Below, one piece after another: positions 16,297-28,348 of a stretch of 44,568 nt of DNA (position 1 is the stretch's first letter; each line of letters begins with the position of its first letter). Made by a program: the position numbers and the translations under genes. The notes under the pieces were generated by a model. It saw only the letters and a program-made list of their open reading frames with translations. It did not search any database and had not been told where the DNA came from. Source of the DNA: Candidatus Woesearchaeota archaeon (GTDB lineage Archaea; Nanobdellota; Nanobdellia; SCGC-AAA011-G17; UBA489); NCBI GenBank assembly GCA_018658265.1, contig JABHVN010000045.1, positions 1 through 44,568 on the forward strand, in the 5' to 3' direction.

Positions 16297-16450
16297 ATAT
16301 TACACATCGAGTATTCAAACCTATAAATCTTTTGATACTCATTAGTTAACAAAATTTATCAAATATCTGCATAGATTAGCTAGTTTGGCAAACAGAAAAT
16401 CATTTAAGTATCGGACTCGTCTTAAAACAAAACTACGGAGGTGTTTTGAC

Positions 16451-16606
16451 ATGAAATGCGATTGTCCAGCTTGGTGTAAATGGGTTCTACTTATTGCAGG
16501 TATCCTTTACGTTGCAGGAGATTTAGGTTATGGTCCAGGGTTATGGGGTATAGACGTATGGCACTTATTAGTACTATTATTCGGTATTAAAGCAGTATCA
16601 AACTAA
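16451..16606 (+). CDS. Small 2-TM membrane protein (51 aa)
   Basis: GGAGGTG SD before ATG 16451; MKCDCPAWCKWVLLIAGILYVAGDLG...WHLLVLLFGI. Confidence 0.75.
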   Translation: MKCDCPAWCKWVLLIAGILYVAGDLGYGPGLWGIDVWHLLVLLFGIKAVSN

Positions 16607-16656
16607 ATCTAACGAATAACAAGAAGGGTGTTGTAATACTTCGCCCAATATTTTTT

Positions 16657-23548: not shown

Positions 23549-23965
23549 TTAAACATTACAACATAATGCATCAACACTCAAGCCATCATCGCTTCCAGTT
23601 TGACTACATTTCCAACCTTCTGAACGATTAGTGCTATTTCCCCAATGGCCGTAAAAGTTAGGTACATTTTCTGTTAGGTATGCCATATTCCCATCACTAT
23701 TACATCCACCACTAATTATGGAGGGTTTATTTGCAGGGCACTGTCTAGACATTTCCAGAGTATTATTTCCCATTTCGCTTATAATTTGGCCACCTGCACT
23801 ATTCCATGCACATCTTCCCGAAACAGCAGCGTTAACTGCATGACCTGTTAAATCTACTTCAGATGTAAATGCTCCAGTTAAACTTGTAGCTAAAAAAGCT
23901 GCAGCAAGTATTAATAAAACTGGAAGAAGTAACATATGATGATTTTCTGTTTTTCTTATCTTCAT
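23549..23965 (-). CDS. Small secreted Cys-rich protein
   Basis: N-terminal hydrophobic helix, LTGAF/LTGHAV motifs, CP..ISGGC..WKC..ALCC pattern; GAGGTG SD. Confidence 0.8.
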   Translation of the reverse strand: MKIRKTENHHMLLLPVLLILAAAFLATSLTGAFTSEVDLTGHAVNAAVSGRCAWNSAGGQIISEMGNNTLEMSRQCPANKPSIISGGCNSDGNMAYLTENVPNFYGHWGNSTNRSEGWKCSQTGSDDGLSVDALCCNV

Positions 23966-24058
23966 TATCTTAACACCTCATTGTTATTTTAATAAAAATA
24001 AATCCAATTCTAATTATTTAAACCTTGCGAAAACAAAGTACAAACTAAATATTGATTA

Positions 24059-24146: not shown

Positions 24147-25244
24147 TTAGTATGATTTTCTGGTTGGCGTATTTTCGTAGCCAACCATGTCGATGCCCAG
24201 ATCATCTGCGACCTGTACTGCTTGCTTAGTCACCTCTGTATGACTAGATTTTCCAAGGATGTATGGTGAGGTTACACCAGTAATAATGGTCATAATCCTC
24301 AATCTTCCTGCCATGCTTGGGTCAATTCTAGCTCCCCAGATTACGTTTGCGTCAGCATCCAAAGCTTCAGTAATGATCTCTCCGATTCTGTTAACTTCAT
24401 CTAAAGTTAGATCATCTCCACCACTTACATGAATCAAAGCTCCAGTTGAGCCATCATAACTTACATCCAGTAATGGATTTGTTAATGCTCTTCTTGTTGC
24501 TTCTTCAACACGAGACTCTGTATCTGATTCGCCTATACCTATAATTGCAACATCTCCATTAGACATAATTGCTCTTACATCAGCATAATCTAAGTTTACT
24601 AATGAAGGTACAGCAATTGTTTCTACAATTCCTTTAATCATTGTTGAGATTAACTCATTTGCAACAGCGAATGCTTGTTGAATAGGTAAGTTTCCTGCGA
24701 TGTTTACTAATCTATTATTGTCAATAACAATAACAGTATCACATTCTTCTCTTAATTGTTGTAAGCCAAATTCAGCTTTATCAACTCTAGCTCTTTCAAT
24801 TTCGAAAGGCATTGTAACAGTTCCAATAACAATTGCGCCTGTTTCTTTAGCCATTTGTGCAACAACTGGAGCACTTCCAGTTCCTGTTCCTCCACCAAGA
24901 CCAGCACATACAAATACCATGTCTGCATCCTTGATGAATTTTTTAATATCATTACCAGATTCTTTTGCAGCTTCTCTTCCTTTTTCAGGGAATCCGCCAC
25001 ATCCTAATCCTCTAGTTAAATCTGCACCAATTAGAAATCTTCCATCACAGCTGGTCATATCTAAATGTTGCTTATCTGTGTTAACAGCGTAAATTTTTGC
25101 ACCCTTAACTCCTTTTTTATGTAACCAGGAAACCATATTTCCTCCGCCACCACCACATCCGATAACACGAATGTTAGCTTCTCCTATAGGTGTTTGTTCT
25201 ATTGCCGGTGCATTTCTTAATGCGTCTTGTATTAAATTTTCCAT
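24147..25244 (-). CDS. ftsZ: Cell division protein FtsZ
   Basis: GCGGGGGN, tubulin signature GLGGGTGTGSAP, IDNNRL, NLDYADV, IWGAR. Confidence 0.98.
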   Translation of the reverse strand: MENLIQDALRNAPAIEQTPIGEANIRVIGCGGGGGNMVSWLHKKGVKGAKIYAVNTDKQHLDMTSCDGRFLIGADLTRGLGCGGFPEKGREAAKESGNDIKKFIKDADMVFVCAGLGGGTGTGSAPVVAQMAKETGAIVIGTVTMPFEIERARVDKAEFGLQQLREECDTVIVIDNNRLVNIAGNLPIQQAFAVANELISTMIKGIVETIAVPSLVNLDYADVRAIMSNGDVAIIGIGESDTESRVEEATRRALTNPLLDVSYDGSTGALIHVSGGDDLTLDEVNRIGEIITEALDADANVIWGARIDPSMAGRLRIMTIITGVTSPYILGKSSHTEVTKQAVQVADDLGIDMVGYENTPTRKSY

Positions 25245-25351
25245 TTTTTTCTTTTTCCCCCGTTGTTGGTTTTTTTGTTTGATTGCGATGTGTGTATGCT
25301 AGACCACAATAATCTTTATATTATAGTTCTAACTACAACTACTTTACGAGG

Positions 25352-25374
25352 TTTAATGATTTAATGATTTAATC
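25352..25374. repeat. Tandem 8-mer repeat TTTAATGA x2.9
   Basis: TTTAATGA-TTTAATGA-TTTAATC in the ftsZ upstream region. Confidence 0.6.
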
Positions 25375-25408
25375 GCTCCTAGAAATTAGTCAAACTATAA
25401 TATATATA

Positions 25409-25485
25409 CAGATTTTAGCCGATCTGATTGAGGTTAAGTTTTAGCCGAACTTAACGATAGTCAATAATTGTTTTAGCCGAACAAT
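25409..25485. repeat. Three inverted-repeat hairpins sharing the core TTTTAGCCGA
   Basis: CAGAT-TTTAGCCG-ATCTG (25409-25426), GTTAAGTT-TTAGCCG-AACTTAAC (25433-25455), ATTGTT-TTAGCCG-AACAAT (25467-25485). Confidence 0.85.
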
Positions 25486-25629
25486 ATAACTAAGTTTTTA
25501 ATTCTATTAATGTAACGTAAGTTATATATAAATACCTTTACTCTGTAACATATAAAACAAAAAATATAAATGGTTATTTAACCAATTACTAAAATTAATG
25601 CATTCGAACAGTACAATACTAAAAAGAGC

Positions 25630-26931
25630 GTGTTTAACTTGAAAAAAAACATTATTCCTAATACAAATATTAAGATAACAACTAAGGATTCAAGAACATT
25701 TGAAGGCCTTGTTCTTCCAGATACAACATCCCAAAAAGTTGTTCTAAAATTATCTTCAGGATATAATATAGGAATATTGAACAAAAATATTCAAGAAACT
25801 AAATCTCTAAAGAATCAAGTTTCAAAGAAAAACAAATTACCCAAACTAAAAACCAATAAAAAATTACCAACTATTTCTATTTTACATACTGGAGGTACAA
25901 TTGCCTCAAAAGTAGATTATGAAACTGGAGCAGTTTTATCTCAGTTCTCACCTGAAGATATAATCTCTATGTTCCCAGAAATCAAGGGTTTAGCCAATAT
26001 TGACTCTAAATTAGTTAGAAATATGTGGTCCAGCAACATGAATTTCAATCATTTTAACATATTGGCCAAGGCTGTTGAAAAAGAAGTAAAGAAGGGTGTA
26101 GACGGAATTATCGTAACTTTAGGAACAGATGCATTAACTTATGCCTCTGCAGCACTCAGTTTTATTTTAGAAGGAATATCCATTCCAGTTATCTTTACAG
26201 CATCACAAAGATCATCTGACAGAGGTTCTTCAGATGCATTCCTTAATCTATACTGTGCAGTTAAGTTTGCAAAGGAAGCTAATTTTGCAGGAGTTGCAAT
26301 ATGTATGCACGGTTCTTCAAATGATGATTACTGTAACGTTCTTCCTGCATGTAAAACTAAAAAATTGCATTCTTCTAGGAGAAATACTTTCCAACCAGTA
26401 AATACTGCCCCAATAGCAAAGGTAACAACTGAAAATATAGAGTTTTTCCCAGAAACACACCATAAAAAGAGAAATGATTCTAAATTAAAATTAAAATTAT
26501 TAAATCCTAAACTAAAACTAGGAATTTTAAGATTCCATCCTCATTTCCAAAGTTCAATGTTAGAACCAATTAAGAAATTTGATGGATTAATTATTGAGGG
26601 AACTGGATTAGGTAATGGTCCAGTTGAATGTGTTGACGAGTTTACGAAAGAAAATGAAAAAACAATCAAGACAATAACTGCATTAACAAAAAAAATGCCA
26701 GTTACAATGACCACTCAATGTGTATTTGGCAGAGTCAATATGAATGTTTACTCCTATGGGCGTAAAATCCTTGATTCTGGAGTCTGGGGCAACCATACGG
26801 ACATGCTACCAGAAACAGCATTTGTCAAATTAGCATGGTTATTAAGCAATTATAATAAAAAAGAAATAAAAGAACTTTATCACAAAAATTTAAGAGGCGA
26901 AATTTCAGAGAGAACTTTATACAATGACTGA
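25630..26931 (+). CDS. gatD: Glu-tRNA(Gln) amidotransferase subunit D
   Basis: KLSSGYNIG N-domain, TGGTIASKVDY, GTD, SQRSSDRGSSDA, DMLPETAFVKL, NLRGE; start may be 25630 (GTG) or 25639 (TTG). Confidence 0.96.
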   Translation: MFNLKKNIIPNTNIKITTKDSRTFEGLVLPDTTSQKVVLKLSSGYNIGILNKNIQETKSLKNQVSKKNKLPKLKTNKKLPTISILHTGGTIASKVDYETGAVLSQFSPEDIISMFPEIKGLANIDSKLVRNMWSSNMNFNHFNILAKAVEKEVKKGVDGIIVTLGTDALTYASAALSFILEGISIPVIFTASQRSSDRGSSDAFLNLYCAVKFAKEANFAGVAICMHGSSNDDYCNVLPACKTKKLHSSRRNTFQPVNTAPIAKVTTENIEFFPETHHKKRNDSKLKLKLLNPKLKLGILRFHPHFQSSMLEPIKKFDGLIIEGTGLGNGPVECVDEFTKENEKTIKTITALTKKMPVTMTTQCVFGRVNMNVYSYGRKILDSGVWGNHTDMLPETAFVKLAWLLSNYNKKEIKELYHKNLRGEISERTLYND

Positions 26932-28348
26932 TTTAGATTACAAAAAATTAGGTTTCAAATGCGGGTTAGAAATTCATCAGCAATTAGAAACTCACAAATT
27001 ATTCTGCAATTGTCCTTCGATTGTCCATGATAGTAACCCTAATATTAAAATTAAAAGAAAATTAAGAGCTGTTGCAGGAGAAACCGGGAAAGTTGATGCA
27101 GCTGCAGCATATGAGATAAAAAAAGATCTAAAAAATGTTTATGAAGCTTGTTCATCTTCTTCTTGTTTAATTGAGTTAGATGAAGAACCTCCAAAAGAAG
27201 TTAACAAAGATGCTTTAGATATAGTTCTTCAAGTTGCATTATTGCTTAACGCAAAACCTGTTGATGAAATTAGAGTTATGAGAAAAACTGTTGTAGATGG
27301 TTCAAATGTTTCCGGTTTCCAGAGAACAATGTTAGTTGCAACAGATGGGTTCATTGAAACTTCAAAGGGAAAAGTAATTGTTGATTCAATTTGTTTAGAA
27401 GAGGAATCTGCAAAAAAAGTTGAAAAGAAAGATGATTATGTCAAATTTAGATTGGACCGTTTAGGAGTTCCATTAATTGAAATTGCAACAGATGCTTCAA
27501 TTAAAGATCCAGAACATTGTAAAGAAGTAGCGTCCTTGTTAGGGATGATTCTAAGGTCTACAAACCATGTTAAAAGGGGAATAGGGACAATTAGACAAGA
27601 CGTAAACGTTTCTATTAAAGGGCATCCCAGAGTTGAAATCAAAGGTTTTCAAGATCTAAAAAGCATTCCAAAGATTATACTCTACGAAACTAAGAGGGAA
27701 ATATCTGAAATAAAATCTAAGAAAAAAACTGCATCCCATGTAAGAAAAGCAGATCCAGATTTTACAACCTCATACTTAAGACCTATGCCCGGAGCAGCAA
27801 GAATGTATCCCGAAACAGACGTACCTCCAATTCCATTAGAAAAAGAATTATTATTGAAAATAAAACTTCCAGAACTAATAACTGAAAAAGTAATGAAGTT
27901 AGAAAAAAGATACAATTTATCTTCACAATTAGCACAAGAATTAGTTCACAATGAAGATTTTGAAAAGTATGTTAAAACCTTCAAAATATCTCCTGAACTA
28001 ATTGCCAAATCTTTAATCGAAGTTCCTAAAGAAATATCTAAGAGATTTAATTTAACTACTGAAAAAATAAACAATTCCAGTTATGAAGAAGTTTTCAAAG
28101 CAGTTGAAAATAAAACAATTAATGAATCTGCAATCTTGGAAATTTTAACAGACGTTGCTAAAGGAAATAAAATAGATTTAAAGAAATTTAAAAAAGTTTC
28201 AACTTCAGGAATAGAATCTGAAATAAAAACAATGGTCCAAGCTAATAAAAAACTCTCTCCAAATGCTATAATGGGAATGGTTATGGCAAAATACCGTGGA
28301 AAAGTTGATGGAAAGAAAGTAATGGAAATAATTAAGGCAAATCTATAA
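26924..28348 (+). CDS. gatE: Glu-tRNA(Gln) amidotransferase subunit E (insertion domain absent)
   Basis: GFKCGLEIHQQL, RKTVVDGSNVSGFQRT, DRLGVPLIEI, KRGIGTIRQD, RPMPGAARMYPETD; 474 aa. Confidence 0.96.
   Translation: MTDLDYKKLGFKCGLEIHQQLETHKLFCNCPSIVHDSNPNIKIKRKLRAVAGETGKVDAAAAYEIKKDLKNVYEACSSSSCLIELDEEPPKEVNKDALDIVLQVALLLNAKPVDEIRVMRKTVVDGSNVSGFQRTMLVATDGFIETSKGKVIVDSICLEEESAKKVEKKDDYVKFRLDRLGVPLIEIATDASIKDPEHCKEVASLLGMILRSTNHVKRGIGTIRQDVNVSIKGHPRVEIKGFQDLKSIPKIILYETKREISEIKSKKKTASHVRKADPDFTTSYLRPMPGAARMYPETDVPPIPLEKELLLKIKLPELITEKVMKLEKRYNLSSQLAQELVHNEDFEKYVKTFKISPELIAKSLIEVPKEISKRFNLTTEKINNSSYEEVFKAVENKTINESAILEILTDVAKGNKIDLKKFKKVSTSGIESEIKTMVQANKKLSPNAIMGMVMAKYRGKVDGKKVMEIIKANL

Follow-up and report, generated by a model that had tools for sequence, protein, structure and literature searches.

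The three hairpins that share one loop in the spacer between ftsZ and gatD are real, and they are part of a new, previously undescribed, clade-restricted small RNA gene. The window analyzed here is the whole stretch of 44,568 nucleotides from a Candidatus Woesearchaeota archaeon, the genome of which is denoted G000 below. In our judgement, which is drawn from sequence comparison, the gene is probably an independent one on the + strand and encodes a K-loop small RNA of about 160 nt with repeated docking loops; it is probably not a leader of ftsZ. Such an RNA would begin at about 25341-25349 and end at about 25499-25510 on the + strand, the direction of gatD and opposite to that of ftsZ. Its own TATA box (25314-25322) would drive it, the three hairpins would occupy its 3' two-thirds, and a T-run would end the unit. 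The unit was found in 43 genomes from seven families of one order of archaea with small genomes, as one copy per genome. The features of the locus in the window are as follows.

24147..25244, - strand: ftsZ (FtsZ1-type; Pfam Tubulin and FtsZ_C), the divergent neighbour
25257..25261, - strand: Shine-Dalgarno-like GGGGG of ftsZ (CCCCC on the + strand), with counterparts in the ftsZ 5' regions of 38 genomes
25292..25299, - strand: proximal ftsZ TATA position, degenerate here, reading GCATACAC on the - strand
25314..25322, + strand (orientation inferred): TATA box CTTTATATT, proposed small-RNA promoter, invariant in 8 of 8 genus genomes and kept family-wide
25341..25349, + strand: predicted transcription start zone, 27-35 nt after the C of the TATA box, by analogy with tRNA genes
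25351..25374, + strand: predicted K-loop hairpin, with stem GTTTAA/TTAATC, TGA at 25357-59, loop TTTAAT and GAT at 25366-68
25386..25399, + strand: conserved unpaired block ATTAGTCAAACTAT, kept across the genus
25409-25426, + strand: hairpin 1, CAGAT (25409-13)/ATCTG (25422-26), with the 8-nt loop TTTAGCCG (one extra T)
25433-25455, + strand: hairpin 2, GTTAAGTT (25433-40)/AACTTAAC (25448-55), with the 7-nt loop TTAGCCG
25467-25485, + strand: hairpin 3, ATTGTT (25467-72)/AACAAT (25480-85), with the 7-nt loop TTAGCCG
25495..25508, + strand: T-run TTTTTAATTCTATT, terminator-like, in which TAATTCTAT is invariant in the genus
25522-35, 25549-59 and 25562-83, strand not assigned: three conserved TATA-like boxes
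25630..26931, + strand: gatD (start possibly TTG at 25640), followed by gatE and aspS; Pfam matches

The core TTTTAGCCGA occurs at 25413, 25439 and 25471, and re-reading of the sequence confirmed that each copy lies inside its own hairpin. The spacer of 385 bp is, as the earlier note had held, the widest gap in the window (among ORFs of at least 90 aa). The second-largest ORF gap in the window (360 bp, 16297-16656) lies between two - strand ORFs and contains no Rfam match at the gathering threshold. Apart from the three copies of the element, the window holds no exact TTTTAGCCGA. A scan of the genome for the core, which the note had proposed, located it only in this element: the 616,901 bases contain three forward and no reverse copies, and the reversed control pattern was found once. 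When one mismatch was allowed, the count in the window was 4, a number reached by 26 of 100 shuffles and not unusual. The 7-mer TTAGCCG has four matches in the window, with 1.03 expected, and none of 100 shuffles reached four.

Genome-wide, TTAGCCG is present at 15 sites. At the 12 sites outside the element the flanking complementarity amounts to 0-3 bp; inside it, the copy at 25441 has 8 bp and the copy at 25473 has 6 bp. The copy at 25415 has 1 bp in the 7-nt register and 5 bp in the register of an 8-nt loop. The copies of the element lie in a single orientation, spaced by 26 and 32 nt, and the TTAGCCG loops of hairpins 2 and 3 are closed by a T-A pair. The folding energy is not exceptional relative to shuffled sequences (z = -0.34 on the + strand and +0.69 on the - strand). 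Thus, the case for the element rests on comparative data and not on stability. An extension of the middle stem by ATTGA and TCAAT, which had also been suggested, pairs in the minimum-energy fold of G000 but is lost in relatives, in which the counterparts read TTTGA...CCAGT (G003) and TTCGA...CCAAT (G005).

The spacer is present in seven of the eight other genomes of the same genus, with 72-89% identity. In the eighth, G002 (91% complete), only a paralogous FtsZ was found, so the ftsZ-gatD locus was probably not assembled. In the genus alignment, the loops are invariant apart from a change of G to A in the loop of hairpin 1 (G007 and G001), and the stems compensate. The outer pair of hairpin 2 is G-C in four genus genomes and A-U in four. 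The stems of hairpin 3 appear as ATTGTT/AACAAT, GTTGTT/AACAAC, TTTGTTGT/ACAACAAA and GTTGT/ACAAC. A loop-anchored pairing test over eight flanking positions was applied to the 16 distinct TTAGCC[G/A] sites of the genus. In this set 71.9% of cells were paired, compared with 50.3% in shuffles, and the covariation score was 0.499, compared with 0.177; none of 500 shuffles reached the observed score. From a plain MAFFT alignment of the genus sequences, RNAalifold recovered hairpin 2 only, because hairpins 1 and 3 are both misaligned there.

Among 240 genomes of the order searched, the paired TTAGCCG-loop pattern is confined to this genus. Five other single matches were obtained and are chance-like, as the reversed control gave nine. 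Six contigs from a metagenome contig scan correspond by eye to the G000, G003, G006 or G001 versions over the stretch compared, and no new sequence variation was seen within that stretch. A scan of genome contigs with an 18-base pattern gave, among the matches listed, chance ones in unrelated bacteria and nothing useful.

The family's other nine genera have the same architecture upstream of their orthologous ftsZ, with different loop words. On the + strand the unit consists, in this order, of a TATA box, the K-loop hairpin, short unpaired blocks that are conserved, one to four hairpins with the same loop, and a T-run. The TATA consensus of the family on the + strand is …AAT[C/A]TTTATAT[T/G]GTAG. 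The distance from the CTTTATATT box to the TGA of the K-loop downstream of it is 40-57 nt in 20 of 21 family genomes; in G012 it is 28, with a different TATA pick. An example of the 5' hairpin in relatives is AGTTTAC-TGA-TTG-ATGAT-GTAAACTT. Blocks related to ATTAGTCAAACTAT take the form (T)CTAACTAC or TTTCACTAC in other genera, and T-runs of the AATTCTTTTT type follow the last hairpin in other families too.

Each genome has one loop word, and the stems of its hairpins are unrelated to each other. The word is CGCCAA in most genomes, GTCCAA in G010, G153 and G036, CGCTAA in G015, TTAAGCCC in G012, and TTAGCCG in this genus. The loop core is GCC, and most words contain an NCCAA variant (GCCAA, TCCAA or ACCAA). 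The pairing test for CGCCAA included all 38 distinct sites in homologous regions, with no stem filter. Here 78.6% of cells were paired, compared with 43.6% in shuffles; the score was 0.815, compared with 0.212 (0 of 500 shuffles), and two-sided changes were observed at 8 of 8 pairs. Conservation of loop plus stem in relatives, which the note had set as the check on its idea, is therefore present. Its view that structure is under selection, rather than that the copies arose by simple duplication, is borne out by fixed loops and covarying stems both in the genus and across seven families.

Families f14 and f16 and part of f1 (L082, L086 and L092 among them) have nearly the same final hairpin ahead of the T-run, TTGATTTTAA-CGCCAA-TTAAAATCAA, and their other hairpins vary freely. 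This near-constant 3'-most hairpin may have a role of its own.

K-loops of the C'/D' kind consist of tandem G.A/A.G pairs, a U.U pair, a Watson-Crick pair and a closing loop of 5-6 nt. Read on the + strand, the hairpin at 25351-25374 is, to judge from its sequence, a K-loop of this C'/D' type, of the kind bound by L7Ae; read on the - strand, it contains no recognisable motif. In an alignment of 23 sequences, G18, A19, G26 and A27 of both GA steps are invariant (23/23), and T17 and T28, the U.U pair, are at least 90% conserved. The closing pair is AU in 12, CG in 7 and UA in 2, and is unpaired in none. Tandem sheared G.A pairs and a U.U 3b.3n pair followed by a Watson-Crick pair, the signature of a K-turn, are all found. 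In the stem, 88.7% of cells are paired, compared with 76.4% for shuffled sequences, of which none in 500 attained the observed value. In all 23 aligned sequences the pattern 5'-[U/G]GA-N3-6-R-UGA-[U/C]-3' occurs with a covarying flanking stem. Several genomes show the wording CTGA...TGATG, which we take to be that of boxes D'/C'. L7Ae is encoded in G000 (best family TIGR03677) and would be the probable ligand of the K-loop. The binding of L7Ae would then lead to a stable particle.

A covariance model of the K-loop hairpin, R1, was used to scan 151 genomes of the order. R1 matches once per genome in 37 of the 151 genomes, and 34 of these matches adjoin ftsZ: that of G000 and those in families f1 (11/12), f11 (1/1), f13 (2/2), f14 (12/12), f16 (5/5), f23 (1/1) and f27 (1/1). 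Weak matches in f4, f7 and f28 (n = 3) lie inside ORFs with no ftsZ adjacent and were rejected as false positives. In a class-wide sample of 151 genomes, R1 was not found outside the order; the five matching genomes of that sample all belong to the same order.

Six marine or seawater metatranscriptome runs contain small shares of a 5-kb stretch at this locus; four of them were compared as strandless contigs. Run X2 contains a 1308-nt contig from a strain about 95% identical, with a mean depth of 28, that covers 24221-25525. Most of ftsZ and the entire element are included; towards gatD, this contig ends inside the first of the TATA-like boxes. The five pieces of run X1 (identical strain, depth about 2) all lie on ftsZ, and one of 151 nt reaches 25315, beyond any proximal ftsZ start. 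In runs X1, X3 and X4 the hairpins are not covered, and the short pieces lie only on ftsZ and on the ORF at 23549-23965. In the four runs, no contig lies over gatD. The metatranscriptome cover that the note had asked for thus exists, as a contig spanning the hairpins continuously with ftsZ, but the contigs are strandless. Divergent transcripts that do not overlap would not form one contig, and some transcription on the ftsZ strand therefore very probably crosses the element, unless DNA was carried over. A - strand read-through leader into ftsZ, across the element, probably also exists.

Two further contigs of run X4 fall on neighbouring genes. The ORF at 23549-23965 (- strand, 138 aa), located just downstream of ftsZ, belongs to no Pfam or NCBIfam family; a 320-nt contig (depth 12.8) lies over 23651-23970 and shows no differences from the window. 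A 5473-nt contig (depth 1126) touches gatE at 27472-27489 and 28045-28064. Only 18-20 bases are shared on each of two strands, and the contig probably derives from some other organism that matches here by chance or through a repeat.

The read-through bears on a different explanation of the hairpins, close to the ftsZ-strand leader of the earlier note. An RNA of the - strand starting near 25505-25532 would form a long 5' leader of ftsZ, and loops that bind a factor (CGGCUAA here, UUGGCG in other families) would control ftsZ expression. This explanation is unlikely in our estimate, and yet several observations are in keeping with it. The RNA contig is unbroken from ftsZ to 25525, and the other piece extends to 25315. 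The TATA-like boxes at 25522-35 and 25549-59 are readable on the - strand, at a distance that, in our judgement, fits the end of the contig. Wobble pairs are also compatible with the - strand. In the CGCCAA set, 17 G.U pairs on the + strand compare with 12 A.C pairs (G.U on the - strand), and in the K-loop stem 8 compare with 6, for an unbiased total of 25 against 18; an earlier best-stem count of 22 against 12 included some spurious rows.

The promoter closest to ftsZ adds evidence on both sides. In the 38 genomes compared, the Shine-Dalgarno-like run before the ATG of ftsZ is mostly GGGGG, shortened to GGGG in a few genomes (G037, G165). Most relatives retain a good proximal ftsZ TATA, GGAG(A/T)ATATA, between the element and ftsZ, which argues against a leader. 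In six of eight genus genomes (G000, G003, G005, G008, G004 and G006), however, the proximal TATA is degenerate (CATACA/TACACA). This degeneration fits a greater use of an upstream ftsZ start in those six genomes.

Other observations do not agree with a leader on the ftsZ strand. The invariant TGA...RTGAT is a textbook K-loop on the + strand only, and many relatives have a - strand T-run just past the complement of the K-loop (A-runs on the + strand). A conserved TATA about 30 nt before the K-loop and a T-run after the last hairpin have the spacing of a + strand gene. Moreover, strandless contigs can merge overlapping transcripts. From the RNA model of the note, then, a small RNA with several copies of a binding loop is retained, and its placement in an ftsZ-strand leader is doubtful because the K-loop belongs to the + strand. 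If the independent + strand small RNA is the right reading, - strand transcription in G000-like strains would also cross its gene into ftsZ, and the small RNA would be antisense to a long ftsZ leader.

Promoters of the 33 tRNA genes of G000 consist of a purine-rich stretch, such as TAGAAAG, and then CTT[T/A]TAAA, located 33-35 nt before the 5' end of the mature tRNA. T-rich runs are found after the tRNA genes. The TATA box assigned to the small RNA resembles these promoters, and the CTTTATATT box resembles that of tRNA-Val; the T-run of the unit resembles the runs 3' of tRNA genes. The TATA boxes of this locus are near-palindromic, and their orientation is therefore a matter of judgement. The tRNA promoter consensus will be useful for promoter annotation in this clade.

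A DNA element without any relevant RNA structure is a third explanation, in which the hairpins would be cruciforms, or operators through which a regulator controls the divergent promoters of ftsZ and gatD. The position between two promoters, copies in one orientation at their 26- and 32-nt spacing, and wobble counts without a clear strand bias are all consistent with it. A regulator that binds double-stranded DNA reads the arms of a palindrome, however, and in this element the arms differ and the asymmetric centre is fixed. In addition, the K-loop with its covarying stem, the T-run and the cover in RNA libraries would have no explanation. We consider a DNA element extremely improbable; the cruciform or operator array put forward in the note was set aside for leaving the K-loop unexplained.

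The gene order around the unit is highly conserved. All 43 genomes show an FtsZ signature upstream of the element, in divergent orientation, and 40 of the 43 have a GatD motif on the + strand within 1.1 kb downstream; the three genomes without it are G153 (733 nt available), G156 and G163. The product of aspS is, by Pfam, a class II Asp/Asn-type tRNA synthetase. This arrangement is what would be expected if the hairpins formed a + strand leader of gatD-gatE-aspS, with the T-run as an attenuator and the NCCAA loops as mimics of the tRNA 3' end read by GatDE or the synthetase. Most loops do contain NCCAA, a wording that resembles the N73-CCA of tRNA. This leader is nevertheless very unlikely. 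The interval from the T-run to gatD contains conserved TATA-like boxes; these are probably promoter elements of gatD, and one of them may drive - strand transcription. The RNA contig ends at 25525 and leaves gatD uncovered, and the three genomes mentioned have the element without the GatD motif. Moreover, loops that are not of the CCA kind occur, namely GCCGA in this genus, AGCCC in G012 and GCTAA in G015.

Regulatory leaders of the aminoacyl-tRNA pathway offer a related comparison. The thrS operator imitates tRNA arms, and in T-box leaders the base of Stem I contains a K-turn. The present element likewise has repeated hairpins beside genes of that pathway (gatD, gatE and aspS). It has, however, no specifier loop, T-box sequence or anticodon loops, its NCCA-like wording is lost in this genus, and the T-run and TATA-like boxes separate it from gatD. 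A T-box leader was rejected as an identity, as Rfam gave no T-box match and the loops carry the NCCA-like wording itself, not its complement.

The note had not recognised the hairpins as a described element, and database searches agree with this. With Rfam 15, cmscan found only a tRNA in the window at the gathering threshold. Within the spacer, at E up to 10, the best matches had E = 2 and 6.4, and at the loci of seven relatives only tRNA was matched. In a search of the literature, no description of such an RNA was found among the listed records and their abstracts or in PMC3491384.

Several known RNA classes were considered and rejected. A reduced SRP RNA or RNase P RNA does not apply, as both were found elsewhere in G000 above their cut-offs. 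The element is not a box C/D sRNA: by eye, no terminal box C or D is present outside the K-loop hairpin, and the flanks of the K-loop pair together. Fibrillarin (PF01269) was not found in G000 (92% complete), nor was a 16S rRNA motif in its assembly. An H/ACA sRNA was also rejected, since no internal loop interrupts the short stems and, by eye, no conserved ACA follows.

Among known RNAs, those bound by archaeal L7Ae through K-loops or K-turns (C'/D', apical H/ACA and mRNA-leader motifs) are similar in the 5' module. They share the tandem G.A/A.G pairs, the U.U pair, the Watson-Crick pair and the loop of 5-6 nt, along with CTGA...TGATG in several genomes and an encoded L7Ae. In contrast to box C/D sRNAs, the element has no terminal C/D boxes and no guide regions, and its flanks pair mutually; in contrast to H/ACA sRNAs, it has no pseudouridylation pocket and no ACA box. 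The K-loop of the element is followed by simple hairpins with the same loop, which those L7Ae-bound RNAs are not known to have.

Bacterial sRNAs of the CsrB/RsmZ type are multivalent protein sponges with a GGA loop motif. As in these sRNAs, unrelated stems present the same short loop motif, and the copy number varies between lineages (1-4 here). The loop of the present element is C-rich (GCC core) instead of GGA, it comes from an archaeon, and the K-loop module has no counterpart in those sRNAs. CopA/CopT and RNA I/RNA II are antisense-RNA systems that act by loop-loop kissing. The element resembles them as a short RNA of several hairpins, possibly directed against the longer leader of a neighbour, with G+C-rich loops within an A+U-rich RNA. 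However, cis-antisense pairing needs no shared loop within a genome, and convergent transcription at this locus is putative.

In the preferred reading, the repeated C-rich loops (core GCC, mostly NCCAA) of the small RNA would offer one partner, be it a protein or a complementary RNA, several identical sites for docking, and the small RNA would act as a multivalent decoy or scaffold. The occurrence of one loop per genome, differing between lineages, argues for a single co-evolving partner. A further speculation, which we hold to be distinctly unlikely, is that the RNA corresponds, in archaea, to the decoy sRNAs of bacteria: a particle anchored by L7Ae whose one to four identical C-rich loops titrate one factor and so couple division by ftsZ with Gln-tRNA formation by gatDE. 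Candidates for the titrated factor would include a protein recognising the NCCA end of tRNA or a G-rich site in an RNA. The wiring would lie in the shared promoter region and in the antisense overlap with a long ftsZ leader, in archaea that have small genomes and are probably host-dependent.

Regulatory RNAs of archaea with small genomes, which are represented almost only by metagenomes, are nearly unstudied. This candidate combines a single copy, a fixed place beside the main cell-division gene and a predicted K-loop module for protein binding, and its loop sequence changes in step across all copies in a lineage, a sign of one co-evolving partner. If that partner were found, it would provide a first handle on how division or tRNA charging is tuned in these archaea, and would define a new architecture among RNAs that use L7Ae. 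Even if the RNA were only a stable by-product of a bidirectional promoter, the locus would still be a useful marker of the clade.

RNA partners were looked for by complementarity to the loop. Loop complements are not enriched in G000, which has 12 other 7-mer sites, and its tRNAs, SRP RNA and RNase P RNA contain none; the assembly lacks rRNA. The ftsZ mRNA was rejected as a target in trans: UUGGUG at codons 4-5 is present in some genomes only, as L-V codons, and CGGCUA in the ftsZ coding region is present in G005 and G008 and is not kept in G000, G003 and G004. The mRNA of a tRNA-splicing endonuclease was likewise rejected. Its 9-nt complement at the start codon (C25:5970) is lost in ten relatives, five of the same genus and five others, and about 3-4 9-mer complements of that start-codon kind are expected by chance, as an estimate. 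The gene concerned, named as tRNA-splicing endonuclease-like by eye from its sequence, is located at G000:C25:5450-5980 (- strand). Its TATA lies about 30 nt before the ATG, and it thus looks leaderless.
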